Below, piece after piece: positions 429 through 52,860 of a DNA stretch of 64,000 nt. Source of the stretch: Candidatus Nomurabacteria bacterium. Lineage in GTDB: Bacteria; Patescibacteriota; Minisyncoccia; Phycocordibacterales; UBA5272. Numbering within the stretch: position 1 is the first letter of the stretch; each line of letters starts with the position of its first letter. The DNA is taken from positions 273,536 to 337,535 of the forward strand of contig JAQBRF010000004.1 in NCBI GenBank assembly GCA_028286645.1. Direction: 5' to 3'. The notes under the pieces are model-generated. The model saw only the letters and a program-made list of their open reading frames with translations. It was not told where the DNA came from and searched no databases. The translations under genes and the position numbers were made by a program.

Positions 429-472
429 AACTTTTGAAGTGCGATACCCCTTTAACCACCAAGGAACCCATC

Positions 473-766
473 ATGAAGAAGACGACTCTTGCAATCCTCC
501 TGGCGTTGGCCCTCACGGCTATTTCGACCGCCGTCTCGTCGGCAGAAGTGCAGAATAAAAGCGCTGTGGTCATCAAGAATAAAAACAACGTGACGGTGAA
601 AGTGGTCAAGGTATTTGAGTTTGATTACGAGATGAAAGCTCCCGACACCGAAAGGACGGTAAACCAGTGGATCCGTGACAATCCCAACATCCTGATCACG
701 GAACAGTCGGTCGTCCGGACGAGCCCTTCTGGCTATGTCGTGGTGATTTGGTACACGCCGATGTAA
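473..766 (+). CDS. small secreted protein, GC-rich ORFan cassette A
   Basis: RBS AAGGAA lies 7 nt before ATG 473. The N-terminus MKKTTLAILLALALTAISTAVSSA is a signal peptide. G+C is much higher than the flanks. An intrinsic terminator follows. Confidence 0.55.
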   Translation: MKKTTLAILLALALTAISTAVSSAEVQNKSAVVIKNKNNVTVKVVKVFEFDYEMKAPDTERTVNQWIRDNPNILITEQSVVRTSPSGYVVVIWYTPM

Positions 767-786
767 CGATAAGTTCTATACGGCAA

Positions 787-812
787 GGTGGCGCGTATTG
801 CGCCACCTTTTT
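787..812 (+). terminator. rho-independent terminator (GGTGGCGC-gtatt-GCGCCACC followed by a T-run)
   Basis: Perfect 8-bp GC stem followed by TTTTT immediately after the stop of the 473..766 ORF. Confidence 0.7.
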
Positions 813-836
813 ATACTAATAATTTTCAATAATTAA

Positions 837-1478
837 TTATATAGATTCGCTGCTATCTCCGGTTATAGGAATCTCCTCGCCTAAAAATTTCGGTTCTCTT
901 TTACTTACAACATCAATAACGGCTTTTACATCCGCAAATACTTCTCTTATATTATTTTTAAAGAGATATTCATGCTGGTCCGCGCGAGCGCCATAGGCTT
1001 TTATTCCTAAACTTCGAGCGATAAATAGTGATCTCGGCAGATGAAATGATTGGGTCACTATGATTGCAGAATCTACCATAAATATATCCCGGGCTCTATA
1101 CATACTGCTATATGTATCAAATCCCGCATGATCAAGGAATATGGCTTCTGTGGGCACTCCTTGGGACAGCATATAGTCTCGTGTAGGGTTAACTTCATTA
1201 TGATACTCTGTTCCATCGTCTCCTGTGATGAGAATTGTCTTTACTTTGCCGTTTTTATATAAAGATATGGCGATATCAGCTCTATCTTTTAATATTGAAG
1301 AAAGTTGTCCGGCACTGGTAACAGAGGCTCCTAAAACTATGGCTGTATGAGCATTTGATAGCTTATCCATATCTTTAATAAATGAAAGTGAATATATTTT
1401 AAATCCTACAAATATTACTACTATAGCCCCCATAGCTGCAACTAAAATTTTAAAAATTAACTTAAATATAAATCTCAT
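837..1478 (-). CDS. SanA/YdcF-like DUF218 membrane protein
   Basis: N-terminal TM helix, then AIVLGASV...ILITGDDG...VTQSFHLPRS, which is typical of the DUF218 (SanA/ElyC) fold. Confidence 0.55.
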   Translation of the reverse strand: MRFIFKLIFKILVAAMGAIVVIFVGFKIYSLSFIKDMDKLSNAHTAIVLGASVTSAGQLSSILKDRADIAISLYKNGKVKTILITGDDGTEYHNEVNPTRDYMLSQGVPTEAIFLDHAGFDTYSSMYRARDIFMVDSAIIVTQSFHLPRSLFIARSLGIKAYGARADQHEYLFKNNIREVFADVKAVIDVVSKREPKFLGEEIPITGDSSESI

Positions 1479-2119
1479 TGCTGTTTATCAAAATTAAGTA
1501 TGGTCTTAGCATCTATAACTTTTTCTTTGTAACCAGGATCTGTAATAAATAGATTATCTAATAATCTACAAAGCAGAGTATCTATATCTACTATAGTTTG
1601 ATGATCTAATGCTTCAAATTCATCCAATCTTCTCCGGCTTAATTCTCTAGCAATTGAGGGAGTTAAATAAGTCTTTTCCTTATCTCCCTCCTGACTAGAG
1701 TATTCTTCTATGAAAAACTCTTTCTTTTGCTCATCACTCAATTGTTGAATCTTTTCATTGGCTTGGCATTCTAACAAAAGATCCTCTATATATCTTTTTA
1801 AGTATTCTTTTCCTAGGTCATCGTAGGTTAGTAGATGAGAAATAACTTCTCCTAAATTATCTAGAACCTCTTCTACTTGATGCTTAATTCCTTCATCTAA
1901 CCCATAATTAAATTGCTTAATAATAATCCCAGCCTTTCGAAATAAGTCTCTTATTTTAATTTCGAGTTTAGCCACCTCTTCGGGAGGTAAAAGCTCTATA
2001 TTTTTTGAAGTTAAAGGTATATAAGAAAGCTTTTCCAAAGCTTCTTTTTTTTCATTTTCATATTGATTAACTAAATCGGTTTCCTTGTTTTTTCCTGGAT
2101 CAGATTTATCAAATATCAT
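1475..2119 (-). CDS. hypothetical acidic coiled-coil protein
   Basis: Complete ORF with a 4-nt overlap to the downstream gene. No recognisable motif. Confidence 0.4.
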   Translation of the reverse strand: MIFDKSDPGKNKETDLVNQYENEKKEALEKLSYIPLTSKNIELLPPEEVAKLEIKIRDLFRKAGIIIKQFNYGLDEGIKHQVEEVLDNLGEVISHLLTYDDLGKEYLKRYIEDLLLECQANEKIQQLSDEQKKEFFIEEYSSQEGDKEKTYLTPSIARELSRRRLDEFEALDHQTIVDIDTLLCRLLDNLFITDPGYKEKVIDAKTILNFDKQQ

Positions 2120-10798: not shown

Positions 10799-10909
10799 AT
10801 GATTAATAATATCACTTATTTTTAATAAGTATTTCGCGTTTATGTCCCCATTTGAATACACATAAAATAAGTGTAGAATGCGGGTAAACCACTACAAAGG
10901 AGCATTACT

Positions 10910-11308
10910 ATGTGGAACGACCCTCGCCCCCTCATTATCGAAGATGGGGCATTGCTGGACGCTTTACTTCGCGAATGGAATTCGGACAAGGTGTCAGCAA
11001 AGATTGTTTTCCACCCTCCGCTTGATTGCTGGGTGACGGAATGGTTTGACGACGGGGGCGGTCATTCTGGAGCAATATGGGCCCGGCGTTCACCAGTGGA
11101 TCCACCCGTATTTAATCGAGCAAGGGAGCTCGGCTACGTCGTGGGGGCTCCTAAGCTGGGATATACCTCCGATACGGAGTTCATTCTGACAGAAAACCCC
11201 TACATTCTCGAGGAGATCCATCGCCTGACAAAAGAATGGAGGGAAAAGGATTTAGCCAATCAAAAAGCAAGGTACCGCGCGAAACACCCCGAGCTGGAGA
11301 CGGATTAG
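10910..11308 (+). CDS. hypothetical protein, GC-rich ORFan cassette B
   Basis: RBS AAAGGAG lies 8 nt upstream. Codon and G+C usage are unlike the neighbours. Followed by a hairpin plus T6. Confidence 0.5.
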   Translation: MWNDPRPLIIEDGALLDALLREWNSDKVSAKIVFHPPLDCWVTEWFDDGGGHSGAIWARRSPVDPPVFNRARELGYVVGAPKLGYTSDTEFILTENPYILEEIHRLTKEWREKDLANQKARYRAKHPELETD

Positions 11309-11333
11309 GAGCGGAAAGGAAATACTGTTCGAG

Positions 11334-11358
11334 GCCTGGTTAACTCCAGGCTTTTTTA
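11334..11358 (+). terminator. intrinsic terminator (GCCTGG-ttaactc-CAGGC followed by TTTTTT)
   Basis: Stem-loop plus T6, 25 nt after the stop. Confidence 0.65.
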
Positions 11359-11388
11359 TTAGCTCGAATCTTTTAACTACAAAAATCG

Positions 11389-13606: not shown

Positions 13607-13812
13607 ATGGGAAGTATATCAGGTAGGATATGAAAGAAATTGGAACTCGGTTATATTTTCTTTATTCGGATTAAATTCTATAATCCACTCGATATCATAT
13701 TTATTTCTAAATATTTTAAGACACATCAGATAACTTGACTTTATAATAGCAGTGTGTTATACTATATAGGTACTCGTTCTGGCCAAATTTATTGTATCCC
13801 AAGGAGACCCTT

Positions 13813-14181
13813 ATGTCCCAACGCCGTATATTTGCAGTGGGTGACGGGGAAGTCATTCTCTCGGTACTCAGCATCACGAACGCTGGCGCCGCGGGTGAAG
13901 CCGTGGTGAAAGTCCGTGCGGAAGAAAAAAAAGAGGATGTCGCGATGCTTCTCACCTTCCAGGTGATGCTCGAAGCGACACCTCTCCGCCCCCTCGGCAT
14001 GCCGAGGGAGATCATGAAGAACAGGAAGACCAGAGCGGCTGCCGCTATCTTGAGCGCCGTCACGGTCGATGGTCCGGGATGCTTCTCGTTCAACGGTCTC
14101 GACTTTCTCAGGTGGGATTCGGACGGTGCGTGCTTTTACGTGCCCAGCCGGAACCACTGCGAAGCAACTCAGCTCCAATAG
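13813..14181 (+). CDS. hypothetical protein, GC-rich ORFan cassette C
   Basis: RBS AAGGAG lies 7 nt before ATG 13813, and an intrinsic terminator follows on the plus strand. Competing minus-strand ORFs lack these signals. Confidence 0.5.
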   Translation: MSQRRIFAVGDGEVILSVLSITNAGAAGEAVVKVRAEEKKEDVAMLLTFQVMLEATPLRPLGMPREIMKNRKTRAAAAILSAVTVDGPGCFSFNGLDFLRWDSDGACFYVPSRNHCEATQLQ

Positions 14182-14210
14182 TGAAAAATCGGCGTGCCTC
14201 GTGCCCGCCA

Positions 14211-14236
14211 CCCCGACTGAAGTCGGGGTTTTTTTA
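14211..14236 (+). terminator. intrinsic terminator (CCCCGAC-tgaa-GTCGGGG followed by T7)
   Basis: Perfect 7-bp GC stem plus TTTTTTT. Confidence 0.7.
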
Positions 14237-14905: not shown

Positions 14906-14970
14906 ACAGAATTTGAAGAATTTTATAAACAGTCTATTGACAAAAGTGATCTATAATGTTAAAATAATAA

Positions 14971-15156
14971 ATGTCCCTTTGGACACACTCAGGAGTGCCG
15001 ATGGAAGACAATATCGATCTTCATGTATTGCAAAGCCGGCTCATTTTCGCGCAGGAAGACGCCGGCGACGACTTTCTCGGTAAATGTCAGCGCGCGCAAG
15101 CCGCTGCGTCCATACCGGTCCTCGAGAAGCAAATCACCCAGATGGAACAGAAGTGA
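14971..15156 (+). CDS. small hypothetical protein, GC-rich mini-cassette D (alternative start at ATG 15001 preceded by GGAG)
   Basis: 52-61 aa ORF in a G+C-rich patch, followed by a strong terminator. Confidence 0.3.
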   Translation: MSLWTHSGVPMEDNIDLHVLQSRLIFAQEDAGDDFLGKCQRAQAAASIPVLEKQITQMEQK

Positions 15157-15171
15157 TCGTTCGGATGGGTA

Positions 15172-15201
15172 GGCGCGCGGCTACGGCTGCGCGCCTTTTT
15201 T
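15172..15201 (+). terminator. intrinsic terminator (GGCGCGCGGC-tacg-GCTGCGCGCC followed by T6)
   Basis: 10-bp GC stem plus TTTTTT. Confidence 0.65.
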
Positions 15202-15775: not shown

Positions 15776-15895
15776 TTCCTTACTTACAACAGACACTCCG
15801 AACTTTCGAGTCCTTGAGGGCAAACAAAAACACCCTTAACGGGTGAATTTTGTTGCTGGCATTTTGGAAGGGTGTCCGTCTTTTATATCAGTAAA

Positions 15896-16570
15896 CTAAA
15901 CGTAGAATGTCTCTAGTCCCTCTTCTTTAAGCGCTTGCTTCACAGCCTCTCTGCTCTCTACCCGAGCCATGTATGCAGTTATGTTTGCATACTCCTCAAG
16001 GCTCATGCCAAACTGCTTCGTCCAGCGTAATATCGTGTACAGGTACGCATCCGGTGCAGTAAATGAATCACCGACGAGGTATTGGTGCTTACCAAGCTCA
16101 CTTTCCACATAAGCGAGTCGGCTCATGATCTTCTCCTTCGTTTGTCCCTTTAGTTCGTCAGATAATGTTGGATTAAATAGTGGTGAGAATCCCTTATGAA
16201 TCTCGGAACTTATGTAGGTCATCCATTCTAGGGCGCGGTAGTACACGAGTGAGCCTTTCTCTGGCATAAGAGTTACGGAAGATTGGTCGACAAGATAGTG
16301 AATAATAGCCACACCTTCCGAAAGCACATCACCTGAATCAAGCCGTAATGCAGGGACGTATCCACCTTTTGGGTTCACCACAAAAAAGTCTTCGCCCTCT
16401 GCAGTTGTGCGTTTTGCACCGTCAAAGGTAACACGTGATAGTTCTATGGCGATTTTGCCTTCTCTGGCAACTATATGCGGAGAAAGTGAACAGGCACCTG
16501 GAGCATAATAAAGTTTCATATTTTTTAGATTTAAGTTGTTAAAAGTAATATTACTTAATTGAAATTTCAA
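15896..16570 (-). CDS. glutathione S-transferase
   Basis: N-terminal MKLYYAPGACSLSPHI thioredoxin-like GST domain plus a C-terminal alpha domain. Moderately G+C-enriched. Confidence 0.8.
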   Translation of the reverse strand: MKFQLSNITFNNLNLKNMKLYYAPGACSLSPHIVAREGKIAIELSRVTFDGAKRTTAEGEDFFVVNPKGGYVPALRLDSGDVLSEGVAIIHYLVDQSSVTLMPEKGSLVYYRALEWMTYISSEIHKGFSPLFNPTLSDELKGQTKEKIMSRLAYVESELGKHQYLVGDSFTAPDAYLYTILRWTKQFGMSLEEYANITAYMARVESREAVKQALKEEGLETFYV

Positions 16571-26590: not shown

Positions 26591-26617
26591 AAAAACAATC
26601 CCCGATCTATGTCGGGG
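26591..26617 (-). terminator. intrinsic terminator for cassette F (CCCCGA-catagat-CGGGG followed by a T-run on the minus strand)
   Basis: Hairpin plus T5 (minus-strand read) downstream of stop 26636. Confidence 0.6.
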
Positions 26618-26635
26618 TTCTTTGAGCTTCGTGTC

Positions 26636-27169
26636 CTACTTATGACGATTCGGATCTGCGCCCTCACGCTGTTTGCGTATCTCTTCCAGGGCTGCCGTCT
26701 GGTTCTGAATGAGCAGACGATTCTGAATGAGAAGCTCTTGCATGAGCCCGTTGCCGGAGGGAGCCGGTGGGGCTATTCCGGTCACTTCCTTTGATTGAGG
26801 AGGCGGAACAGCAACAGTGCCGAGGTGTTCGATCTTGGTCAGGAAGTAATTTTCGCTGTCCGAGCGACACAACGTAACTGCTTCCTTCCGGTAATGGATC
26901 TTCACTTCTTGCTGCGTCTCCATGGCCTTTTGCACCTGTTGAGCGAGCTCCTCGCTCTCCACCGTGAAGTGAAATGCACTGCCCACCACGCCTGAGCCGG
27001 AGTTCAACCCTCCCCTGATGATCTCGCCTTCCCAGGTCTTGCAGAAAACGCCCGTCTTTTGCAACCGAGTGATAGACCCGATTTTCTCGCCCTCTCCCAT
27101 GTCCCAGCAACCGCCGAGAAACACGAGCATGAAGGAAGCTGCCAGATTCTTAATTAAACGAACTTTCAT
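26636..27169 (-). CDS. lipoprotein, GC-rich ORFan cassette F
   Basis: RBS AGGAGA lies 6 nt before the ATG. Signal peptide with lipobox LVFLGG-C. High G+C. Own terminator. Confidence 0.5.
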   Translation of the reverse strand: MKVRLIKNLAASFMLVFLGGCWDMGEGEKIGSITRLQKTGVFCKTWEGEIIRGGLNSGSGVVGSAFHFTVESEELAQQVQKAMETQQEVKIHYRKEAVTLCRSDSENYFLTKIEHLGTVAVPPPQSKEVTGIAPPAPSGNGLMQELLIQNRLLIQNQTAALEEIRKQREGADPNRHK

Positions 27170-27245
27170 CGTCGATCTCCTGTTGATGATGGTTTTAAAT
27201 CTTAATTATTATACTACATAACAATTAACATGTCAATAAATTAAA

Positions 27246-32148: not shown

Positions 32149-32170
32149 AAAAGAATTTTACCATGTAAAA

Positions 32171-32200
32171 AGCGGAGGGCAGCAACGCGCCTCCGCTTTG
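32171..32200 (-). terminator. hairpin GCGGAGG-gcagcaacgcg-CCTCCGC with flanking A5 and T-run (terminator of mini-cassette M)
   Basis: 7-bp GC stem read on the minus strand, followed by TTTTT. Confidence 0.5.
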
Positions 32201-32212
32201 TGTCCTTCCCTA

Positions 32213-32362
32213 CTACCGGCTGAGCCCTGGAAAGGCAAATTCGGGGTTGAGTAAAACAGATATATCCATGCCATCTGGATCGTAGTTGTTCCACCCCGCC
32301 ATCCTCGCGACGCCGATCACCAGAAGGACCACAAAAATTATAAATCTAGCGAGCTCACTCAT
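32213..32362 (-). CDS. 49-aa membrane peptide, GC-rich mini-cassette M (not in the ORF track)
   Basis: ATG 32362 to TAG 32213 reads MSELARFIIFVVLLVIGVARMAGWNNYDPDGMDISVLLNPEFAFPGLSR. G+C-rich island between the helicase and ftsX. RBS-like AGGGGA upstream. Confidence 0.3.
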   Translation of the reverse strand: MSELARFIIFVVLLVIGVARMAGWNNYDPDGMDISVLLNPEFAFPGLSR

Positions 32363-32431
32363 TCCCGTATCCCCTGTTAAAACTAATCGCTTTTACACTA
32401 CTATTTAGACTTATTTATGTCAATCTTATCT

Positions 32432-36884: not shown

Positions 36885-36913
36885 TTGACTTTACTGATAT
36901 ATATGATATACTA
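36885..36913 (+). promoter_or_regulatory. sigma70-like promoter TTGACT-16-TATACT for GC cassette G
   Basis: Consensus-like hexamers about 55 bp upstream of ATG 36969. RBS CAGGAGAC follows. Confidence 0.4.
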
Positions 36914-36968
36914 TAATACATAGGGTCCCTCGCCCAGAAAATGAGGATTTTACAGGAGACTTACTCTA

Positions 36969-37349
36969 ATGAATACGCAACGTAGCTGGTTCATGCCCTT
37001 CGCTATCACTGTCATCCTGCTCCTCTGTTCTCTCGGTTGGTTGACTATGGAACACGGAGCCAGAAAACTCGCGCAAACCCAGAAGGAGAGGGCCGAGCAG
37101 GACCTCAAATTCGCCCACGAAGACACGAAAGAGCGGGTCGAAAGCATCCGAGATGTGGTCATCGCCCACATGATCGAGGAATACGCCGCGGAAGAAGTGC
37201 GTGAGTGCAAGAAACTGCGATCTCCGCAAGACGAGAACTGCGTTATCGGTGCGAAAGCAAGCCAGCAGCATTTCGCTCAGAAACTCTGGGATGACATGCT
37301 GCGGCGCGCTTCCACCATTCAGTACAACAAGAACAGGAACGGACGTTAA
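36969..37349 (+). CDS. hypothetical membrane-anchored protein, GC-rich ORFan cassette G
   Basis: RBS ACAGGAGAC, N-terminal TM helix, high G+C, own terminator. Overlapping minus ORFs are rejected. Confidence 0.45.
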   Translation: MNTQRSWFMPFAITVILLLCSLGWLTMEHGARKLAQTQKERAEQDLKFAHEDTKERVESIRDVVIAHMIEEYAAEEVRECKKLRSPQDENCVIGAKASQQHFAQKLWDDMLRRASTIQYNKNRNGR

Positions 37350-37366
37350 CAACCGTGCAACAATGG

Positions 37367-37398
37367 GCCCCACCTTTACGGTGGGGCTATTTTATTTT
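37367..37398 (+). terminator. intrinsic terminator (GCCCCACC-tttac-GGTGGGGC followed by a T-rich run)
   Basis: Perfect 8-bp GC stem. Confidence 0.7.
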
Positions 37399-37540
37399 GG
37401 TAATAATTAACATCCGCTTTTAACTATTTTTTTAATACTTTTCCCAAACTATTGCCATCTTATTTAAATTTCATCCTTAAAACCGCCATTTGCTATAATA
37501 TCCACAAATACGACTCCACTTTACATACCAGGAGACCGCG

Positions 37541-37954
37541 ATGAATGCTTGCTCCTTTGTGCTCTTTGCAATGTTTCTTGCTTCTAACCTCGCCTATGCC
37601 GAGGAAGTTAAAGTAGGAGATTCCTTCCTCCTTCTCGAATGCTACGAAATACAGATGAAAAACACATTCCCCATCAGCAATAAAAACAGGACTTTCCAGC
37701 CTGGAGATAAATGCTTTATACAAAAGGATAGCAGAGTGACAGCTCTCGGCACCATAATTGCGACAGAAGAAATTTTTGCTCATTATCTGGTTACAGTTAC
37801 AACACAGGCAAAAGGAAACCTCTGTCCTAATCAAACTAATTTCGTGGTAGGCAACATCTGCCCTAGTCAAACCGTCTTCTTCGTAAGCAAGAGTAAATTT
37901 GCAGACATGAAGACTAAACCCATCGAAAGCCAAACTCACCTCAAGGTCCGGTGA
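37541..37954 (+). CDS. secreted protein, GC-rich ORFan cassette H
   Basis: RBS CCAGGAGACC, signal peptide MNACSFVLFAMFLASNLAYA, own terminator. Confidence 0.5.
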   Translation: MNACSFVLFAMFLASNLAYAEEVKVGDSFLLLECYEIQMKNTFPISNKNRTFQPGDKCFIQKDSRVTALGTIIATEEIFAHYLVTVTTQAKGNLCPNQTNFVVGNICPSQTVFFVSKSKFADMKTKPIESQTHLKVR

Positions 37955-37979
37955 GAACAACGGTGGCTAAGAAATTGGT

Positions 37980-38008
37980 AACCTACAGAAAACGTAGGTT
38001 ATTTTTTA
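37980..38008 (+). terminator. intrinsic terminator (AACCTAC-agaaaac-GTAGGTT followed by T6)
   Basis: Hairpin plus TTTTTT. It overlaps the stop codon of the convergent capA-like gene. Confidence 0.6.
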
Positions 38009-39027: not shown

Positions 39028-39196
39028 TGTTTTAAGTATCGCATAAATTATGGCGGCAGAGTCTCCTCTGCCGCCATTTTCAAACGGGTTTCTCCCTTCT
39101 GCTTCTCCCGCTCTCTTGCTTACACAATCCTTTCTATACGTTCACCCCTGGATTACAGTCCGAAATAGGAAGCTCGCCAGCGAATATCCTCCCTTC

Positions 39197-39721
39197 TTAA
39201 GACGAAAGAAGACCCATCAGGTCAGGGAGTTCGCGCCCGCGAATTTTCTTCAGGAGAGCGGTCAAATCAATTGGCGTTTTCACCGACGTGATAATTTCTG
39301 AAGTGGTGTATGGAGCTTGTCCATCGTCCACGACCCCGATCTTGACCAGCCCCATTTCTTCGAGACGCTTGTATGCTTTATCGAAATGAAAGGCGGCCAT
39401 TCCAGGGTGGATAGCCTCCACCATATCTCTTAACCACCACAGATCCCTTCTTCGAAAAACGACGGTTCGGGCAGGGTTTCTTGAAAGTGCGATTTCGTCG
39501 ATATGGAGCCGCACGATCAACTCTTCGGTGGTCATGACGACGAAGGTGCGCTTCTGCACCACCTCTGCCCCATACTTGAGGAGCATGTCACGCTTCATTT
39601 GCTGGTCGTGAACTTTTTTCTCTTCGGCCAGTTCGTTGGCAAACAGGCGCTTGATGAGAGCGAAAACCTTGCGGCAATATTTCTGGGACCGCTTCTCAAT
39701 GAAACCTTGTAGCATTTTCAT
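39197..39721 (-). CDS. hypothetical protein, GC-rich ORFan cassette I
   Basis: 174-aa ORF in a G+C-rich block adjacent to the tRNA-Thr att-like repeat. No motif. Confidence 0.45.
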   Translation of the reverse strand: MKMLQGFIEKRSQKYCRKVFALIKRLFANELAEEKKVHDQQMKRDMLLKYGAEVVQKRTFVVMTTEELIVRLHIDEIALSRNPARTVVFRRRDLWWLRDMVEAIHPGMAAFHFDKAYKRLEEMGLVKIGVVDDGQAPYTTSEIITSVKTPIDLTALLKKIRGRELPDLMGLLSS

Positions 39722-39783
39722 ACTAAGACCTCCATGAACGGGTTACAGAGAATCTATCACTCAAAACTCTATACGTCAAACAA

Positions 39784-39804
39784 TTGAGCCGTTGAGCAGG
39801 ATTG
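39784..39804. repeat. 21-bp direct repeat TTGAGCCGTTGAGCAGGATTG (duplicate of the tRNA-Thr(GGU) 3' end, att-like)
   Basis: Exact match to 39945..39965, which is the 3'-terminal 18 nt of the tRNA plus 3 nt. The 140-bp spacer contains two perfect hairpins, GTTTCGCA-tgtt-TGCGAAAC and GTAAATGTGAA-gcag-TTCACATTTAC. Confidence 0.6.
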
Positions 39805-39947
39805 GTTACAAATTTCATGTCGTCGCCACTCCATGAATTCGCAACCCGCCGCTCGTGGTTTCGCATGTTTGCGAAACATCACTGCGCGCTTCAATCCTGT
39901 AAATGTGAAGCAGTTCACATTTACTCAAAATACACTTCGTGATTTTG

Positions 39948-40020
39948 AGCCGTTGAGCAGGATTGAACTGCTGACCTCGTCATTACCAATGACGTGCTCT
40001 ACCAACTGAGCTACAACGGC
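39948..40020 (-). tRNA. tRNA-Thr (anticodon GGU)
   Basis: GCCGTTG...GCTCAGTTGGTAGAGC...CGTCA-TTGGTAA-TGACG...AGCAG-TTCAATC-CTGCT-CAACGGC-T. Confidence 0.85.
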
Positions 40021-40804: not shown

Positions 40805-40864
40805 GCTTGACAGTATAACAAATATATTTTAGTATTTCAATTAACTTTTACCGGAGGACTTTCA

Positions 40865-41227
40865 ATGAGTGCCAGGATTATGTTCTTTTCGTTCCTGATC
40901 GCAGGAGTCCCGGCCTGGGGATTCGCATATCAAGGAAACGATATTGCTTTAGTCGCAATCGCGATCTTTACGACCAGCTGTGCCACCCTCTACCTACTCG
41001 CTCGTCACTTGGAAAAGGAGTCTGCCTTTGGCCCACTTTTCCCACGTGCCGCATTTGGCGCTATCATTCTCCCCATGACAATGGCAATGTTTATTGCAGC
41101 GGTGATTGCCTGGAAACATTGGCCCCAGGAAGCAATCTCAGGGAGCGTCATCAATCTTTTTTTAAGCATGGAAGGGCATCGATTAATTAACGGATGGAGA
41201 CTTTTCATTCCTGTAAAAGGGGAATAA
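40865..41227 (+). CDS. small four-TM membrane protein, GC-rich ORFan cassette J, inserted inside the rpsP-KH-trmD cluster
   Basis: RBS ACCGGAGGAC before ATG 40865, hydrophobic, G+C-rich, own strong terminator. It is opposite in strand to the surrounding operon. Confidence 0.45.
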   Translation: MSARIMFFSFLIAGVPAWGFAYQGNDIALVAIAIFTTSCATLYLLARHLEKESAFGPLFPRAAFGAIILPMTMAMFIAAVIAWKHWPQEAISGSVINLFLSMEGHRLINGWRLFIPVKGE

Positions 41228-41238
41228 AAACCCATCAA

Positions 41239-41268
41239 CGGGGTCGCTGAGCGACCCCGTTTTAATTT
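41239..41268 (+). terminator. intrinsic terminator (CGGGGTCGC-tga-GCGACCCCG followed by a T-run)
   Basis: Perfect 9-bp GC stem. Confidence 0.7.
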
Positions 41269-44069: not shown

Positions 44070-44182
44070 ATATGTATTTACTATACCATAACTTTACATA
44101 TTATTTAATTTCATGTAGAACTAGGTTACTCGTTGGCGTTGTGCCGCGAGAATTAAAGGGGTCTTGGCCCCAAGGAGTTCTT

Positions 44183-44608
44183 GTGAAAATTACTTCGTAT
44201 GTCGGTGACACTACAACCCAAAGCGGAATCGTAGGGGCTTTAAAGGATAGCACATTGAATACAGCCCATGCGGGGCTGACAATGGGATACAACCAGCTAT
44301 CTGAAAAAATAAAAAAGATGGTGCAGCATTGCTCCATTTCGCCGTATGTGGCAAACGCAGCAAATTACCGCGCCACATGCTCTATAAAGGTAAAGCTTTT
44401 GTATATGGCCGGTTTACCTGGAGCAATCATAAAAAGGGAGCCTGAGGTTGACTTCGGCTTGGCTCAAGAGGAGGTGTCCGAAGAAAGGGTCGCGGCGGAG
44501 TTCAAGAGAGCTGTAGAGTCTGTCCTTCAATGTGAGATAGATGCTCACCGCCGGAATGGTGATACGTTATTCATCGACCTGCATGGCGTCCAGCAATTGG
44601 CTTCTTAA
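44183..44608 (+). CDS. hypothetical protein, GC-rich ORFan cassette K (GTG start preceded by AAGGAG; the track ORF begins at 44072)
   Basis: G+C-rich from about 44140. RBS AAGGAG lies 5 nt before an in-frame GTG. Own terminator. Confidence 0.4.
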   Translation: MKITSYVGDTTTQSGIVGALKDSTLNTAHAGLTMGYNQLSEKIKKMVQHCSISPYVANAANYRATCSIKVKLLYMAGLPGAIIKREPEVDFGLAQEEVSEERVAAEFKRAVESVLQCEIDAHRRNGDTLFIDLHGVQQLAS

Positions 44609-44613
44609 CCCAG

Positions 44614-44646
44614 AAGGGCCTGTGAACACGGGCCCTTTATTTTATT
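44614..44646. terminator. intrinsic terminator (AAGGGCCTGTG-aa-CACGGGCCCTT followed by a T-rich run), shared with the convergent smc stop
   Basis: 11-bp stem with one mismatch, then TTTATTTTATTT. Confidence 0.6.
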
Positions 44647-46927: not shown

Positions 46928-47023
46928 GTGGAATAGCTAATAGCAGTTAGCCTTTAGCTTGTAGCGAAATACAAACTAGAAGAATACTAGAAGTTTATCA
47001 TATTGAGAAGCTTTAAATATCGG

Positions 47024-47473: not shown

Positions 47474-47484
47474 AAATTTATTAA

Positions 47485-48048: not shown

Positions 48049-48087
48049 GATATACTTTCCTAGTATAAACTATAAAAACTTAAATCA

Positions 48088-48807: not shown

Positions 48808-48811
48808 ATGG

Positions 48812-49056: not shown

Positions 49057-49062
49057 TGTCTA

Positions 49063-49518
49063 CTATCTAACATCTGTTCGCACTTCTTCTGCATGCTCCT
49101 TTGCCTTCACATCTTCATATATCTTCTCTAGATTCCCCTCTTCATTTATTAAAAAACTTTTTCTAAGGACACCTTCGTATTCCTTGCCCATAAATTTCTT
49201 TTTGCCCCACGCCTCATATGCATTAATCACATCTTTGAATTCATCAGATAAAAGAGGAAACTGCAAATTAAATTTTTCAGCAAACTTCTTGTGGCTCTTC
49301 ACAGAGTCCGCACTCACTCCTAATATTACTAATCCCATTTTTTCGAATTCCTGGTACCCATCACGGAAGTTGCATGCTTCTGTTGTACATCCTGGAGTAT
49401 CATCTTTCGGATAAAAATAAAGCAAAACCTGTTTACCTTTATAACTTTCTAAACTATGAATCTTGCCGTCTTGATCTGGTAATGAAAATTCCGGTGCTTT
49501 TTGTCCTATTTTTAACAT
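49063..49518 (-). CDS. bcp: thiol peroxidase Bcp (peroxiredoxin)
   Basis: FYPKDDTPGCTTEAC peroxidatic Cys motif. Confidence 0.85.
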   Translation of the reverse strand: MLKIGQKAPEFSLPDQDGKIHSLESYKGKQVLLYFYPKDDTPGCTTEACNFRDGYQEFEKMGLVILGVSADSVKSHKKFAEKFNLQFPLLSDEFKDVINAYEAWGKKKFMGKEYEGVLRKSFLINEEGNLEKIYEDVKAKEHAEEVRTDVR

Positions 49519-49611
49519 ATATAAATTATAGTATTAGTTATTGGTAATTAATTACAATTGTAACCTTTTGACGCAATTTTCTCTACTAATTTTGACCACC
49601 CATCTCTTCCC

Positions 49612-50040
49612 TTATGCACAAGATTTACATAACCCATAAATTTCCATTGAATGAGTTGTAGTTCTTTTAAACTTTTTACTCTTCTTAAGCATTTTCTTTA
49701 CTGTGTCATCAATAGAAATGCCGTCTATCTTTTCTATAGTCTCGCAATTATTGCATACCAGCTGATGTGATGGTCGTCCTGTCTCAAACTCATAGTGCGC
49801 ATGCCCATGATTAAAATCTGATCTTTTAATAAGCCCTGCCTCCTGCAAGGAAGTAAGATTTCTGTACACTGTAGCCTGATCAATCCCTTCTTTTTTTCTG
49901 AGAGAGTCAATCATTTCATATACTGTTACGGGTGCGCGCTGTTTTACCAAGAACGAAAGAACCGATGTTCTGTGATGAGTGACTCTTAGCCCAGCCTCCT
50001 GCAAAAGGGTAATAATATCTTCTTTTGAATATATAGCCAT
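49612..50040 (-). CDS. Fur-family transcriptional regulator (likely Zur, given the adjacent ZIP transporter)
   Basis: HHHLVCNNCETIEKIDG...CKSC (metal sites) and an N-terminal wHTH. Confidence 0.8.
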   Translation of the reverse strand: MAIYSKEDIITLLQEAGLRVTHHRTSVLSFLVKQRAPVTVYEMIDSLRKKEGIDQATVYRNLTSLQEAGLIKRSDFNHGHAHYEFETGRPSHQLVCNNCETIEKIDGISIDDTVKKMLKKSKKFKRTTTHSMEIYGLCKSCA

Positions 50041-50103
50041 AAAGATATATTATCACCTGAAAAGTTTCTTGCAAATAACTCGCGTTTTTATTAGAATATA
50101 AAA

Positions 50104-50847
50104 ATGATACATATCTCACCTTTTGTTCTATTTGTTACATTAACCGCCCTGTCCACTTTTATTGGAGGAATCGTAGCGTTTAAGTTAAAAACGCGCTTAA
50201 ATCTACTCCTCGGTTTTACTGCTGGAGTTATTTTGTCCGTTGTAGCTTTTGATCTGCTTCCAGAGATAAGCAATCTCGCCACATCTTTAAATATAAGTCT
50301 TCAAAATGCATTTGTGCCTTTAGTAATAGGATTTTTAATATTCCACGTGATAGAAAAGTACATTCAGATTCATATCGCGTGTGAAGATAATTATGGCCAT
50401 CATAGGCACCCCACCTTAGGAGTAGGATCCGCGCTGGCACTAATAGGCCATTCGTTACTAGATGGAATTGGAATAGGACTCGCCTTTCATATTTCTAATA
50501 CGACTGGTATTGCGGTCGCTTTTGCAGTCCTTGCGCATGATTTCTCAGACGGAATAAATACCGTTTCGCTTATGCTGTCCCATAAAAACACTAGGGCGAA
50601 AGCATTTGGATTTTTAATTCTTGATTCATTGGCTCCTATTATTGGTGCGGTTTCTACTTTATTTTTCACTCTTCCTGATAAATATGGAATTATTTATTTA
50701 GGCCTTTTTGCTGGATTTCTTCTTTATATTAGTACGTCCGACATTTTACCCGAAGCACACAGCGAGAAAAGTTCATGGGTTACGGTATTTATGACAGTCT
50801 TTGGTGCTGGAATTATGTATTTTATATTACAGTTTATTACTTTATAA
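50104..50847 (+). CDS. ZIP-family divalent metal transporter (ZupT-like)
   Basis: 8 TM helices. GHSLLDGIGIG and HDFSDGI metal-binding motifs. Confidence 0.85.
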   Translation: MIHISPFVLFVTLTALSTFIGGIVAFKLKTRLNLLLGFTAGVILSVVAFDLLPEISNLATSLNISLQNAFVPLVIGFLIFHVIEKYIQIHIACEDNYGHHRHPTLGVGSALALIGHSLLDGIGIGLAFHISNTTGIAVAFAVLAHDFSDGINTVSLMLSHKNTRAKAFGFLILDSLAPIIGAVSTLFFTLPDKYGIIYLGLFAGFLLYISTSDILPEAHSEKSSWVTVFMTVFGAGIMYFILQFITL

Positions 50848-51889
50848 TTCCTCCTCCTATACAAATACTTTCCTTGTATAAAACAAGAGACTGTCCCGGC
50901 GTTTCTCCTAAATCTCCATCAAGCACTTTAAATGTATTTTTGTTAATTACTTCTACTTTAGCCAGAGGCGCTCTATATCTTGCTCTTGCTTCATAGACTT
51001 CCCCCTTTTTAACAGACTTAGTAAAGTGCACATCTTCCACATAAATTATATTTTCACTCTTTATTCTCTTGCCAGAGGAAACAATAATTGAGTTTGTCGC
51101 CATATCTTTACCTATGACAAAGTATGGTTTATCCTCCGTAGTTTTTTTAGTAATAGTAAATCCATGCCTTTCGCCAATAGTGTAAAATATGGCTCCATTA
51201 TGATGCCCAATTATTTCACCTTCCTCATTCTTTACATCCCCTTTCTTTTCTTCAATATAATTTTTAAGAAGTGTTTTTAGATCAATATTACCCACAAAGC
51301 ATAACCCCTGGCTGTCTTTTTTCTTAGAAACAGAAAGATTTACCTTTTCAGCGTAAGCTCTCACTTCCTCCTTTGTCATTCCTCCAACCGGGAATAATAC
51401 ATTCTTTAAAACCTCTGATGTAAGCGTCCAGAGGAAATATGTTTGATCTTTATTGCCATCAGCACTCTTTGCTAAATGCATTCCGCTTTCATCCTGGACA
51501 ATTTGCGAGTAATGACCAGTAGCAATATAATCCGCTCCTTCGGCCTTCGCCCAATCTAAAAATGCACCAAATTTTACCTGCTTATTGCACATGACATCTG
51601 GATTCGGAGTTCTCCCGGCTTTGTATTCCGAAATCATATAATCAATCACACCATTTTTATATTCTTTTTCTAAATCAAGAGTAATAAAAGGTATTTCTAA
51701 CATACCAGCTACCCTCATCGCGTCTAATCTATCTTCTTTCCATGTACACTCGATAAAATCTGGCTGCCACACCTTGATAAATACACCTGTTACATCATAT
51801 CCCTGCTCCTTAAGAAGAGCGGCTGAAACAGACGAATCTACTCCGCCTGACATTCCTACATATACTTTCTTTCTAATACCATTATTCAT
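50837..51889 (-). CDS. mnmA: tRNA-specific 2-thiouridylase MnmA
   Basis: VGMSGGVDSSVSA PP-loop and the GHYSQI and CNKQVKFGAF motifs. Confidence 0.9.
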   Translation of the reverse strand: MNNGIRKKVYVGMSGGVDSSVSAALLKEQGYDVTGVFIKVWQPDFIECTWKEDRLDAMRVAGMLEIPFITLDLEKEYKNGVIDYMISEYKAGRTPNPDVMCNKQVKFGAFLDWAKAEGADYIATGHYSQIVQDESGMHLAKSADGNKDQTYFLWTLTSEVLKNVLFPVGGMTKEEVRAYAEKVNLSVSKKKDSQGLCFVGNIDLKTLLKNYIEEKKGDVKNEEGEIIGHHNGAIFYTIGERHGFTITKKTTEDKPYFVIGKDMATNSIIVSSGKRIKSENIIYVEDVHFTKSVKKGEVYEARARYRAPLAKVEVINKNTFKVLDGDLGETPGQSLVLYKESICIGGGIIK

Positions 51890-51990
51890 TTCACTACTCT
51901 ACCATAAATATCAATTCTTCTAAGAGCCATATTTACAAATCATCTTAGTGGGTATAGGATTAAATAAAGACTTTCAACGTGGAGGGAATC

Positions 51991-52284
51991 ATGAAAACTT
52001 GCTCATTTGCAATACTGGTGGCCGTACTCCTTTCTGTCTCCCCAAGCGCTTCGGCACAACATCGCGGGTTTCGTCATGGCGGCCCTCCGGTGGTTTTTTC
52101 AGTCCCAGGTCCGGTTTATTATGGGCCTCCTGTATATATAGCTCCCGCGCCGGTTTACTACGGTCCGCCCATCTACATGGCTCCGCCCCCCAGGAGACAA
52201 TATATTGAAATTGCACCCGTTTGCCGAGATGTATACATCGGTACAGATCAGTGGGGGAAAGATCACTTCGATCACAGCTGCTGA
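51991..52284 (+). CDS. secreted Pro/Tyr-rich small protein, GC-rich ORFan cassette L
   Basis: RBS GGAGGG lies 5 nt before ATG 51991. Signal peptide MKTCSFAILVAVLLSVSPSASA. Repeats PVYYGPPVYIAPAPVYYGPPIYMAPPP. Own terminator. Confidence 0.5.
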   Translation: MKTCSFAILVAVLLSVSPSASAQHRGFRHGGPPVVFSVPGPVYYGPPVYIAPAPVYYGPPIYMAPPPRRQYIEIAPVCRDVYIGTDQWGKDHFDHSC

Positions 52285-52297
52285 ATCTTTGTGGCTG

Positions 52298-52329
52298 GGG
52301 TGCGCTTAATGCGCACCCATTATTTTTTT
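52298..52329 (+). terminator. intrinsic terminator (GGGTGCGC-ttaat-GCGCACCC followed by T7)
   Basis: Perfect 8-bp stem. The loop overlaps the stop codon of the convergent dnaQ-like gene. Confidence 0.7.
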
Positions 52330-52860
52330 ATACACTTCTACTAGCGCTCTTGTATCCGCTAAAGCTGTATGGGCTTTCGTATTTTCTACTTTTAATAACT
52401 CACAAAGTGCTCGAAGTGAAAATTTATCAGCCTGAGGAGCATCATAAAGTCTGGCAAGGGCCATTGAGATGGTGTCAAGCTTTCCATAGTGCATCTTATT
52501 TTCTACTCCTGTTTCTTCAAATGCCTTTGAAACGAAAGCATAATCAAACACAATATTATGGGACACGAAAATTGCTCCTTGAGTTTTTTTAGCAAATTCT
52601 TCCATGGCTTTTTTCCGGTCAACTGCAAACATCCAATCAACTTCATTGTACCCATTGATTCGCAATGCCTCATCTTCAGCAGTTTCTATATGCTGGGGTT
52701 TTATTTTCCACTCGGCTTCTTCTATTATTTCTAACCGTGGGCCTTTTCCTTCACGCTCTACTTGCTTGGCGATTATTACCGCAAGTTCTATGATTTCATG
52801 TTTATTTGGATCGGTCCCCGTTGTTTCTGTGTCTATAAAGGCGAGATTATGTACTTTCAT
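52306..52860 (-). CDS. DnaQ-like 3'-5' exonuclease (DEDDh, Pol III epsilon-like)
   Basis: Exo I FIDTETTG, Exo II VSHNIVFDYAFV, Exo III HTALADT. Confidence 0.75.
   Translation of the reverse strand: MKVHNLAFIDTETTGTDPNKHEIIELAVIIAKQVEREGKGPRLEIIEEAEWKIKPQHIETAEDEALRINGYNEVDWMFAVDRKKAMEEFAKKTQGAIFVSHNIVFDYAFVSKAFEETGVENKMHYGKLDTISMALARLYDAPQADKFSLRALCELLKVENTKAHTALADTRALVEVYKKIMGAH

Follow-up and report, generated by a model that had tools for sequence, protein, structure and literature searches.

Gene content of the window

The window, i.e. the whole 64,000-nt stretch of DNA analysed here, has an overall G+C content of 37.6%. Its backbone is the housekeeping chromosome of a Candidatus Nomurabacteria (Patescibacteria) metagenome-assembled genome (MAG), with genes including those for CTP synthase, LeuRS, RNase R, SMC, trmD, prfB, ftsEX and ribosomal proteins. 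Scattered between these genes are 12 short single-ORF units, which are listed below together with a glutathione S-transferase (GST) module and a tRNA-Thr region (islands are those called by the model described in the next section).

Cassette A, 400..815, + strand: promoter-like sequence 400-428, ORF 473-766, hairpin 785-809 with T-run, island 439-807; product of 97 aa with predicted signal peptide, GC3.70
Cassette B, 10852..11360, + strand: promoter-like sequence 10852-10879, ORF 10910-11308, hairpin 11331-11354, island 10912-11351; cytoplasmic ORFan of 132 aa
Cassette C, 13735..14236, + strand: promoter-like sequence 13735-13763, ORF 13813-14181, hairpin 14210-14229, island 13798-14228; product of 122 aa, codon periodicity p = 0.0005
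Cassette D, 14937..15201, + strand: promoter-like sequence 14937-14965, ORF 14971-15156, hairpin 15171-15196, island 14973-15195; product of 61 aa, or 51 aa from an internal ATG at 15001 with SD
GST module, 15831..16519, - strand: beta-class glutathione S-transferase ORF 15896-16519 (207 aa), hairpin 15831-15845
Cassette F, 26600..27236, - strand: promoter-like sequence 27236-27208, ORF 26636-27169, hairpin 26617-26600, island 26600-27145; lipoprotein of 177 aa with OB-fold domain and C-terminal helix
Cassette M, 32169..32400, - strand: ORF 32213-32362, interrupted hairpin 32169-32199, island 32172-32332; product of 49 aa with one predicted transmembrane helix
Cassette G, 36885..37398, + strand: promoter-like sequence 36885-36917, ORF 36969-37349, hairpin 37366-37388, island 36976-37387; product of 126 aa with predicted N-terminal membrane anchor
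Unit H, 37452..38008, + strand: ORF 37541-37954, hairpin 37977-38003 overlapping the stop codon of the PGA_cap gene; product of 137 aa with predicted signal peptide, GC3.46
Cassette I, 39050..39779, - strand: promoter-like sequence 39779-39751, ORF 39197-39721, hairpin 39050-39077, island 39052-39889; cytoplasmic ORFan of 174 aa, G+C-rich 3' UTR of 119 nt
tRNA-Thr region, 39784..40020, - strand: tRNA-Thr(GGT) 39947-40020, structured 140-nt spacer, 21-nt copy of the tRNA end 39784-39804
Cassette J, 40807..41268, + strand: promoter hexamers 40807-40835, ORF 40865-41227, hairpin 41237-41261, island 40890-41149; predicted membrane protein of 120 aa
Cassette K, 44077..44646, + strand: promoter-like hexamers 44077-44104, ORF 44183-44608, hairpin 44613-44638, island 44129-44635; product of 141 aa from GTG (annotated version 178 aa from 44072)
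Cassette L, 51932..52329, + strand: promoter-like sequence 51932-51960, ORF 51991-52284, hairpin 52298-52318, island 52015-52318; product of 97 aa with predicted signal peptide and Pro/Tyr-rich repeats

A NUDIX-like gene with its start at 352 is oriented divergently to cassette A.

Nucleotide composition of the islands

An initial annotation, made by eye, described at least 13 islands at which the G+C content jumps abruptly from a background of ~30-35%. A two-state HMM on G+C, run without prior coordinates, called exactly 11 islands (4,491 nt in total; mean G+C.537 vs.364 in the background), which are loci A, B, C, D, F, M, G, I, J, K and L. The jumps are real (48-59% vs 36% G+C), and both other figures needed correction: 11 islands are robust and the background lies at 36%. 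The G+C content of particular loci is.51 (A),.52 (B),.57 (C),.53 (D),.535 (F),.53 (M),.50 (G),.50 (I),.49 (J),.48 (K) and.52 (L), and their 500-nt flanks have.33-.41. Unit H (.42) is weakly deviant and received no call. The GST module, described earlier as partly similar, is indeed mildly enriched (G+C.44-.46, GC3.44) but was not called as an island. Far fewer islands were obtained in the null models, with 0-2 per simulation under a Markov-5 model and 0-5 after shuffling of 60-nt blocks.

Composition was also far from uniform at the level of codons. The GC3 of backbone genes (n=54) is.298 +/-.040 and does not exceed.363, and neither ribosomal-protein nor other backbone genes show a rise, vs.44-.70 in the cassettes (z = 3.5-10). 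Non-coding parts are shifted too, as the 5' UTRs and 3' UTRs of the cassettes have a G+C content of.43 and.495, respectively, vs.30 in backbone spacers, and the value falls to.08-.33 within 40 nt past the cassette hairpin. The same holds for amino-acid usage, with a FYMINK/GARP ratio of 1.01 in cassette proteins vs 1.64 in the backbone and a K/R ratio of 1.05 vs 2.11; the exceptions are A and H, which are of the AT type. The islands are compositionally discontinuous with the chromosome around them.

Architecture of the cassettes

Each island carries one ORF of 49-177 aa, in agreement with the initial annotation, which had also assigned to each a strong SD, a perfect hairpin with a T-run and, where seen, a sigma70-like promoter. 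SD sequences such as AAGGAG, CAGGAG or GGAGG precede the ORFs, with the exception of D, in which there is none ahead of the annotated ATG and GGAG stands ahead of the internal one. When terminator-like hairpins were ranked on the cassette strand in three 20-kb scans, the top-ranked ones lay at the 3' termini of cassettes A, B, C, D, G, F, J, K and L. These have perfect stems of 18-26 nt followed by a T-run, i.e. the form of an intrinsic terminator as judged by consensus match. The hairpin of H is weaker, that of I lies 120 nt past the stop codon and that of M has an interrupted stem. As described earlier, some cassette ends overlap the convergent gene's stop codon, with the hairpin in H and L and with the T-run in K (stop codon of SMC).

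Promoter-like hexamers are present upstream, and those of F match the consensus at 12/12 positions (TTGACA-17-TATAAT), although the total counts obtained by consensus matching are not above those in shuffled sequences. The hexamers of J are interleaved with the trmD promoter and those of K with the RNase R promoter, on opposite strands, the -35 element of each promoter overlapping the -10 element of its counterpart. In alignments A2 and A3, both the J and the K hexamers lie within DNA that is conserved in relatives without these cassettes. These predicted promoter hexamers are of resident origin, and therefore the imported part would consist of the SD, the ORF and the terminator; the description of the cassettes as self-contained does not apply to J and K. 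Such borrowing is not universal, since F has a perfect promoter of its own. The + strand carries 9/12 cassettes vs 6/54 backbone genes (Fisher p = 2e-5), and this antisense orientation could arise because the antisense face of a neighbour's promoter is borrowed.

Empty and re-used slots in related genomes

The closest relative, L003, has an RNase R that is 79% identical. At the position of K it has 34 nt (vs a slot of 572 nt here) and at the position of J 70 nt (vs 491 nt); the empty-site comparison covered these two cassettes, and both are absent from L003 at the aligned positions. The M slot of L003 is filled by a different unit. No cassette homologues were found in 80 related loci, and a metagenome scan for syntenic relatives of A-D found none.

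The slot upstream of RNase R contains other G+C-rich small ORFs in nine relatives (L004, L006, L017, L020, L030, L038, L042, L049 and L059) and genes of ordinary composition in three (L005, L007 and L009). No two of the G+C-rich units are homologous, 9/11 are divergent from RNase R and their predicted products span 53-319 aa. L004 carries two ORFs, one of them PyrE-like, and the units of L004 and L006, whose sequences were inspected, have the same architecture as the cassettes. The slot is re-used by unrelated genes.

It could be argued that the units are fast-evolving native genes which are specific to the lineage and occupy fixed slots, with their G+C content kept by selection or local mutation. 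Unrelated G+C-rich ORFs recur in the same slot and orientation down to ~50% RNase R identity, the F homologues on contigs L083 and L085 also exceed their neighbours in G+C, and 5.8 billion protein clusters contain no homologue of B or I, an outcome also expected from extreme divergence or birth de novo. We consider this unlikely, however. A PyrE-like enzyme and proteins of such different lengths cannot be positional orthologues, and some slots are empty or hold genes of ordinary composition. The shift extends beyond synonymous sites to UTRs and amino-acid usage, it spares ribosomal-protein and other backbone genes, and the backbone gene ends beside K lack the G+C rise expected from biased gene conversion. 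Finally, the co-directional F, I and M are as G+C-rich as the antisense cassettes, which excludes an effect of head-on transcription.

Search for recombination systems

Site-specific recombination cargo, in the form of integron-type cassettes or tyrosine-integrase elements at tRNA or hairpin targets, is another, quite improbable, origin of the units. It would accommodate the strong strand bias, the promoterless and hairpin-ended imported parts of J and K, and several features of the tRNA-Thr region: (i) a perfect 21-nt copy of the tRNA-Thr(GGT) 3' end adjoins cassette I, (ii) the two tRNA-Thr genes, adjacent in L003, are 4.9 kb apart here with G, H and I between them, and (iii) L003 contains repeated copies of the tRNA-Thr(CGT) 3' end. 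However, the tRNA-end repeat is also found in L009, which lacks cassette I, so the repeat predates I. Searches of the cassettes revealed no attC core-site pair and no common terminal, flanking or inverted repeats or target duplications; for attC-like and flanking repeats this had been noted by eye. A scan of about 40 ORFs turned up no integrase, transposase or reverse transcriptase, the hairpins have the form of plain terminators, and the cassettes are scattered rather than arrayed.

Verification of the junctions

The abrupt change of composition in a MAG might raise the suspicion that fragments of G+C-richer organisms were spliced into the contig during assembly or binning, but such an artefact is very improbable. 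The Logan assembly of run SRR13312974, made independently, matches the window at 100% identity across F, J and K (24092-31059 and 40427-51817, 18 kb without a mismatch), which substantiates the earlier argument against a chimera. Logan gene products also include those of B, C, D, G, H and I, with contigs of 4-5 kb in the case of C and G. The inserts of 160-840 nt have backbone on both sides, disrupt no gene and appear functionally embedded, with terminators facing the neighbour's stop codon and an SD placed after a resident promoter, and the same architecture occurs in independent MAGs of other studies.

Cassette products

The products are mutually unrelated (an all-against-all BLASTP without any pair at E < 1e-3) and, as first reported, unrecognisable by motif, with no matches in Pfam and PHROG searches. 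All nine cassette proteins present in the protein collection, and the GST, form singleton 90% clusters; A, L and M are absent from this collection as exact sequences. F belongs to a large family of uncharacterised lipoproteins with 839 cluster representatives and has a confidently predicted fold (pLDDT 87.5). Seven of the 12 products (A, F, G, H, J, L and M) are predicted to be exported or membrane-bound.

Most of the units are protein-coding. Codon-position periodicity is significant in A, C, D, F, G and I and marginal in B, in these seven units as GC3 > GC2 in the SD-bearing frame, and signal peptides, a lipobox and membrane segments were found at the expected places. That the islands are structured RNA genes, with ORFs arising by chance in stop-poor sequence, is scarcely credible in view of this, of the relatives and fold of F and of an Rfam search that gave four tRNAs and nothing else, even if periodicity is not significant in H, J, K, L and M and the G+C-rich stretches of C and G carry long ORFs on both strands.

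Possible donors

The foreign-like GC3, amino-acid usage and UTRs, and the absence of J and K from L003, support the proposal of repeated single-gene acquisition. The suggested donor, an Actinobacteria-type host or phage, found no support. By a rule-of-thumb conversion, the cassette GC3 points to donors of roughly 46-58% G+C, not 65-72%. The nearest relatives of F lie on contigs with patescibacterial-looking gene content, and the GST is a beta-class bacterial enzyme. In the F family, GC3 tracks the resident genome (.27 in a contig of 37% G+C,.75 in one of 47%), and F of the window (GC3.64) is closest, with 65% identity, to the G+C-rich member. B and I lack a homologue although the database holds the assembly of the same sample, which argues against a co-assembled host as the donor. 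Recent transfer from a sampled lineage should also leave a homologue, and for B and I there is none. A phage origin gained no positive evidence, with no PHROG match, no tblastn match in 50,697 phages and one weak match, of F only, in IMG/VR. According to PMC12455944, horizontal transfer in Patescibacteria is frequent and occurs mostly within the phylum.

Probable moron-like islets

Taken together, the units are probably moron-like single-gene islets that a Candidatus Nomurabacteria chromosome gained horizontally as part of its flexible genome, and we infer a foreign origin for every one of them. The imported module would comprise a 5' leader with SD, a single short ORF and an intrinsic terminator. 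It would stem from a genome with a G+C content of roughly 46-58% and have been placed in a short spacer between two conserved backbone genes, with neither disrupted. Expression may start from the sigma-70-type hexamers predicted in the AT-rich DNA just upstream, which at J and K would belong to the recipient as the antisense face of the neighbouring gene's promoter. The module would thus be moron-like but borrow a resident divergent promoter, and its terminator may also serve the convergent upstream gene. The DNA was probably taken up and inserted by illegitimate recombination, with later trimming by deletion.

Phage morons (Juhala et al. 2000, Hendrix et al. 2000, summarised in PMC4378225) similarly consist of a single ORF flanked by a sigma-70-type promoter and a factor-independent terminator, are inserted between genes adjacent in related genomes, differ from their neighbours in nucleotide composition, have no recognisable recombinase target and are acquired by an unexplained route (PMC4378225). 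In contrast, the islets reside on a cellular housekeeping chromosome and not in a phage or prophage, are G+C-rich within an AT-rich genome, are mostly antisense to the backbone and, at J and K, would have a promoter in resident DNA rather than in the insert. Integron gene cassettes are likewise small, mostly ORFan, often promoterless, hairpin-ended and unlike their host in composition, but the islets have no attC cores, intI, attI or array.

For Patescibacteria, the accessible text of PMC12455944 reports individually transferred genes and islands that account for up to 13% of genome length; the intra-phylum exchange agrees with the relatives of F. That work is based on donor-recipient pairs and island predictors, unlike the present analysis, and the same text does not describe SD-ORF-terminator uniformity, promoter borrowing, antisense bias or slot re-use. 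Promoters that act in both directions are common in prokaryotes, and divergent promoters have been linked to horizontally acquired DNA (bioRxiv 10.1101/2020.01.31.928960). The predicted back-to-back hexamers of J/trmD and K/RNase R resemble these, with the difference that here an incoming gene would make use of a promoter already resident.

The predicted exported and membrane products would fit variable cell-surface functions of an episymbiont, and acquisition of such islets may be one way in which streamlined symbiont-type bacteria gain new genes.

Compositional islands within the housekeeping backbone

The long open reading frames (ORFs) of the window, whose proteins carry the locus tags JWN37_7xx, are the housekeeping set of a bacterium with a small genome and encode CTP synthase, an MsbA-like ABC exporter, RNase R, a short SMC protein, LeuRS and RarA, and these are accompanied by trmD, prfB, ftsE/ftsX, the S16 gene and four tRNA genes. 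RNase R relatives are labelled Paceibacterota, Nomurabacteria or 'Saccharibacteria', the closest (75–79% identical) being those of L003–L009, loci of related genomes centred on this gene.

The initial annotation proposed that strongly G+C-rich single-gene cassettes (A, B, C, D, F, M, G, H, I, J, K and L, with a separate GST module) are scattered through this A+T-rich backbone. A two-state HMM, to which no coordinates were supplied, called exactly 11 islands, coinciding with A, B, C, D, F, M, G, I, J, K and L and summing to 4,491 nt (G+C.537 versus.364 for the background). Strong enrichment was thus upheld for these 11 loci, and H (.42) and GST (.44) deviate mildly and were not called, being the exceptions among loci that otherwise range from.48 to.57, in a window with an overall G+C content of 37.6%. 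The null expectation was 0–2 islands in Markov-5 simulations and 0–5 in shuffles of 60-nt blocks. The GC3 of backbone genes (n = 54) was.298 ±.040, and its maximum of.363 was exceeded by the cassettes (.44–.70), so that the abrupt change in composition, previously estimated by eye, was borne out by computation. The compositional observation is real, and individually inserted single-gene units occupy approximately 7% of the window's housekeeping region, one per 5.5 kb.

The shift also reaches the non-coding parts of the cassettes, with a G+C content of.43 in 5' UTRs and.495 in 3' UTRs versus.30 in backbone spacers, while the promoter-bearing 60 nt (.17–.38) and the 40 nt past the hairpin (.08–.33) are A+T-rich. 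At the protein level, the FYMINK/GARP ratio was 1.01 for cassettes versus 1.64 for the backbone and the K/R ratio 1.05 versus 2.11; A and H are the exceptions to this amino-acid usage of G+C-rich type.

Explanations that treat the cassettes as native genes were also considered. Biased gene conversion is contradicted by the ends of the backbone genes next to K, which show no rise in G+C, and expression-linked codon bias by the ribosomal-protein genes, whose GC3 is only.22–.36. An effect of head-on transcription was rejected, as F, I and M, which run in the direction of the backbone, equal the antisense cassettes in G+C richness. Adenine mutagenesis of the DGR type was dismissed because the cassette coding strands have A > T and are not A-depleted. 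The native-gene alternatives checked do not fit.

Apart from the cassettes, the backbone contains a 921-aa TrlF-family AAA-like ATPase (19085–22710, minus strand), whose NCBIfam match (E = 6e-133) passes the cut-off and which also shows a relationship to the anti-phage protein Ppl. It adjoins a 285-aa ORF where the A+T content of the window is highest (27–31% G+C), and the two constitute a candidate defence locus. LeuRS (955 aa, 56491–59358, minus strand) may contain a NUDIX-like insertion, since its residues ~388–477 weakly match NUDIX-type hydrolases (NCBIfam E = 3e-6 to 7e-4). The SMC homologue (44642–46927, minus strand) has 761 aa versus ~1,180 positions in the NCBIfam model; its central coiled coil appears shortened, and the homologues of relatives are equally long. 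The first 19 kb also contain four P-loop kinase-like ORFs of 150–185 aa (three matching AAA_33 and one AAA_18), several of which adjoin cassettes:

9996–10550, P-loop kinase-like ORF
14417–14878, P-loop kinase-like ORF
17005–17505, P-loop kinase-like ORF
18547–19011, P-loop kinase-like ORF

Architecture and coding potential of the cassettes

Each unit comprises one ORF of 49–177 aa and ends in a G+C-rich hairpin followed by a T-run, as initially described; the SD sequence said to precede every ORF is present at all units except ahead of the annotated start of D. The terminators are predicted from consensus matches, and the cassette hairpins were the top-ranked terminator-like sites on the cassette strand in three 20-kb scans. 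Overlap of hairpins with the stop codon of a neighbouring gene holds for H and L; at K it is the T-run that overlaps. Consensus-level sigma-70-type promoter sites were predicted at all units.

Codon-position periodicity was significant for A, C, D, F, G and I, marginal for B, and not significant for H, J, K, L and M, which encode short, membrane or repeat proteins. Seven products (A, F, G, H, J, L and M) carry a signal peptide, lipobox or membrane helices. These export signals, the coding periodicity and an Rfam scan of the window, which matched nothing but the tRNAs, make structured non-coding RNA genes very unlikely.

The argument that the units are not products of chimeric assembly was strengthened by Logan contigs (an independent assembly of run SRR13312974), which are 100% identical to the window over 24092–31059 and 40427–51817 and thus reproduce the junctions of F, J and K. 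B, C, D, G, H and I are likewise represented among Logan gene products, and chimeric assembly has thus become a very improbable explanation.

Empty sites and re-use of spacers in related genomes

The closest relative, L003, retains the backbone order and lacks J and K at the same positions. Its spacer between the KH-domain gene and trmD measures 70 nt (491 nt with J in the window), and that between the SMC and RNase R genes 34 nt (572 nt with K). No homologue of any cassette protein was found in 80 related loci. All nine cassette proteins present in the protein collection, as well as GST, form singleton 90% clusters, and A, L and M had no exact sequence there. A metagenome scan with the ABC transporter of the A–D region (5105–6883) retrieved relatives of at most 63% identity, with no shared synteny. 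Several independent lines (UTRs, amino-acid usage, synteny and uniqueness) point to the cassettes being foreign DNA.

The same HMM, applied to 1.05 Mb of the RNase R-centred relatives, identified 69 islands, i.e. 0.66 per 10 kb versus 1.7 per 10 kb in the window; the cassette pattern is clade-wide. Small G+C-rich ORFs lie in the spacer upstream of RNase R in L004 (two), L006, L017, L020, L030, L038, L042, L049 and L059. Nine of these 11 ORFs are divergent from RNase R, several encode signal peptides, lipoboxes or Gly/Tyr-rich tails, and no pair showed homology, either among the 11 or with the window cassettes. The units of L004 and L006, when their sequences were read, displayed the SD–ORF–hairpin layout of the window cassettes. 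The same slot (a spacer between two backbone genes) holds genes of ordinary composition in L005, L007 and L009 and is empty in L003. A special hot spot upstream of RNase R was rejected: all comparison loci were selected around this gene and the enrichment is only about two-fold relative to the density in other loci, so no specific hot spot is claimed.

Further occupants of spacers were observed in these loci. In L004, the slot between the SMC and RNase R genes contains a PyrE-like phosphoribosyltransferase gene (9169–9996, minus strand; G+C.62, GC3.74) as a single-gene unit with its own terminator; slot cargo can therefore be metabolic and not solely ORFan. L003 carries its own, different small units (17624–18059 and 11939–12308), one in the slot of M and another in the spacer between RNase R and S16, which in the window is only 45 nt long. 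Between the RecD-like helicase gene and tRNA-Gln the window has ~6.3 kb (24112–30454) and L003 ~90 nt (19716–19806). Besides cassette F, this accessory block contains several genes, all of ordinary A+T-rich composition, for an MliC-domain protein, a CAP-domain protein and a 972-aa beta-helix protein that bears a PG_binding domain.

Resident promoters and strand bias

The promoters of J and K were compared with the corresponding regions of relatives. The predicted elements are:

40807–40812 (TTGACA) and 40830–40835 (TAGTAT), plus strand, predicted promoter hexamers of J, consensus match
40840–40835 (TTGAAA) and 40817–40812 (TATACT), opposite strand, predicted promoter of trmD, consensus match
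44077–44104, putative hexamers of K, inside the RNase R promoter and leader conserved in the alignment with relatives

The predicted promoters of J and trmD are interleaved, back to back. In seven relatives without J, the trmD promoter region can be aligned over the whole stretch bearing the J promoter, and six of them conserve TGTCAAG, which forms the -35 of J when read on the opposite strand. Judged from these alignments, the putative promoters of J and K are resident DNA, and at both sites the imported DNA begins ~20–70 nt upstream of the start codon, so that the imported part consists of a leader with its SD, the ORF and the terminator. Even the T-run of K is partly resident sequence around the SMC stop codon. 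Residence of the promoter would explain why the G+C shift begins at the leader.

Nine of the 12 cassettes lie on the plus strand, versus 6 of 54 backbone genes (Fisher p = 2e-5), and eight of these nine are divergent from a backbone gene, with 49–207 nt from start codon to start codon. Bacteria commonly transcribe in both directions from symmetric promoters (bioRxiv 10.1101/2020.01.31.928960), and the borrowing of resident promoters would account for this placement. Borrowing is not universal, since F, co-directional with the backbone, carries its own predicted promoter with a 12/12 match. The description of the cassettes as self-contained has to be given up for J and K, whose promoter hexamers are conserved in relatives without the cassette. 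On the promoter side of G, the corresponding region is rearranged in L009.

Insertion mechanism

No direct or inverted repeats or target duplications common to the 12 loci were found, in agreement with the initial annotation, which had noticed no shared attC-like or flanking repeats; the search returned only short AT-rich chance matches and terminator stems. In the absence of terminal inverted repeats and target-site duplications at the 12 loci, insertion sequences and MITEs were rejected. The attC pattern (RYYYAAC ... GTTRRRY) matched the window twice, at 16894–16971 and 21723–21836, neither at a cassette, and no integrase, transposase or reverse transcriptase was detected among ~40 scanned window ORFs. 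Integron gene cassettes were accordingly dismissed, as the units lack attC, are scattered over 52 kb and have no integrase among the scanned ORFs.

The sole recombination-like signature was found at cassette I, in the form of a perfect 21-nt copy of a tRNA 3' end:

39784–40020, minus strand, tRNA-Thr(GGT) and downstream repeat region, the repeat copy abutting the promoter of I, 140 nt downstream of the tRNA

A tRNA-targeting integrative island would be bounded by a direct repeat of this kind and carry an integrase; here the two copies are only 140 nt apart, with no third copy and no integrase among the scanned ORFs. The repeat and the preceding 59 nt are 93% conserved in L009 (16665–17013), which lacks I, so the repeat predates this cassette; for the other cassettes it is irrelevant. 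The genes for tRNA-Thr(GGT) and tRNA-Thr(CGT) are 2 nt apart in L003 (14063–14214) and 4.9 kb apart in the window (34987–40020), the intervening block containing an HNH-like ORF (35064–35504), RarA, G, H, a PGA_cap gene and I. The tRNA module of L009 has the opposite orientation and adjoins RarA. The 163 nt downstream of tRNA-Thr(GGT), which close with the 21-nt copy, form three strong predicted hairpins (-61 kcal/mol, z = -5.7) with no Rfam match, and in L003 (14141–14620) a comparable hairpin motif (GTGAACTGCTTCAC...TTACAG) accompanies repeated copies of the tRNA-Thr(CGT) 3' end. This region could be an old att scar or a tRNA-linked RNA.

As a working inference, the cassettes would have been gained by uptake of DNA and illegitimate recombination into spacers, followed by selection for non-disruptive, expressed insertions and deletional trimming of the inserts.

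Products and possible donors

No homologue of B or I was found among 5.8 billion clusters. The assembly of the sample itself is part of this database, which makes it unlikely that they came from an abundant host assembled alongside. A full HMMER scan with F yielded a family of 839 cluster representatives (best identity 65%). Modelled with the family alignment (pLDDT 87.5), F is predicted to be a lipoprotein with an OB-fold domain, a proline-rich linker and a long C-terminal helix, and its structural matches, to OB folds of the SSB and AB5 toxin B-subunit types, are weak. The contigs around F relatives encode Gmad2, DUF5670, PG_binding with GH18, a short DnaX and many small hypothetical proteins, and judging by this gene content the contexts look patescibacterial. 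The GC3 of the family mostly tracks the resident genome (.27 in the 37% G+C contig L086 and.75 in the 47% contig L085). F of the window (GC3.64) is nearest to the G+C-rich member on L085, suggesting that it was transferred from a lineage richer in G+C to which the family is native. L086 (179 kb), where the F homologue of native composition lies at 15829–16504, additionally has genes for an IS605 OrfB/TnpB-like protein and for an IMPDH that contains an intein-like insertion. GST is a full-length beta-class bacterial enzyme (E = 2e-56 to PDB 4g9h). PDB sequence searches with 11 proteins returned nothing, the F-family profile gave noise only, and the single-sequence AlphaFold model of I (pLDDT 37) was unusable.

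By a rule-of-thumb scaling of our own, the cassette GC3 of.44–.70 corresponds to donors of roughly 46–58% G+C, which lends no support to the Actinobacteria-type donor first envisaged. A phage source, also put forward, found no backing: a PHROG search gave no match, nor did tblastn of the 12 cassette proteins against 50,697 phages and 72,556 plasmids, and IMG/VR scans returned nothing for G, K and C and one weak match (33% identity) for F.

Comparison with phage morons and significance

The closest analogue of the cassettes is the phage moron, a single ORF with its promoter and terminator, of deviant composition and located between genes that are adjacent in relatives, whose mechanism of acquisition is not known (PMC4378225). 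Three of the four defining features are common to both: the cassettes are single ORFs between a predicted sigma-70-type promoter and a predicted factor-independent terminator, their composition is unlike that of neighbouring genes, and J and K, those two only, separate genes adjacent in L003. The fourth differs, as the units reside among housekeeping genes and tRNAs instead of in a phage or prophage genome; by analogy, the cassettes would therefore function like morons yet are not morons. In Patescibacteria, horizontal transfer and genomic islands are documented, mostly within the phylum (PMC12455944). New here are the uniform architecture and the density of the units, their antisense bias, the re-use of slots and, at J and K, the borrowing of a promoter.

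A broader reading, which we regard as unlikely, is that Paceibacteria-type Patescibacteria possess a general, undescribed route of gene gain, in which promoterless foreign modules would be captured antisense to resident promoters in re-usable housekeeping spacers, giving a dense, fast-turning-over ORFan surface and accessory layer. Under such a general route, the module ends would coincide with those of a transcript that begins at the leader and closes with the terminator hairpin and some of the U-tract. Because module boundaries match transcript boundaries, the modules may be RNA-derived (retro-transfer); simple trimming of imported DNA gives the same boundaries.

The genomes of Patescibacteria are tiny and streamlined, and the cells are host-dependent; to our knowledge, the way in which they gain the variable surface and accessory genes that determine their host range is poorly understood. 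The units described here share one architecture and a strong antisense bias, and equivalent slots in other Paceibacteria hold unrelated G+C-rich genes. This would offer a concrete model, moron-like modules exploiting resident divergent promoters. ORFans are usually lower in G+C than their genome, and GC3-poor genomes allow equal or higher ORFan GC3 (PMC4706650). The cassettes run counter to the usual pattern, in which foreign and ORFan genes exceed their host in A+T, and they provide a simple compositional marker for the flexible gene layer of such genomes.
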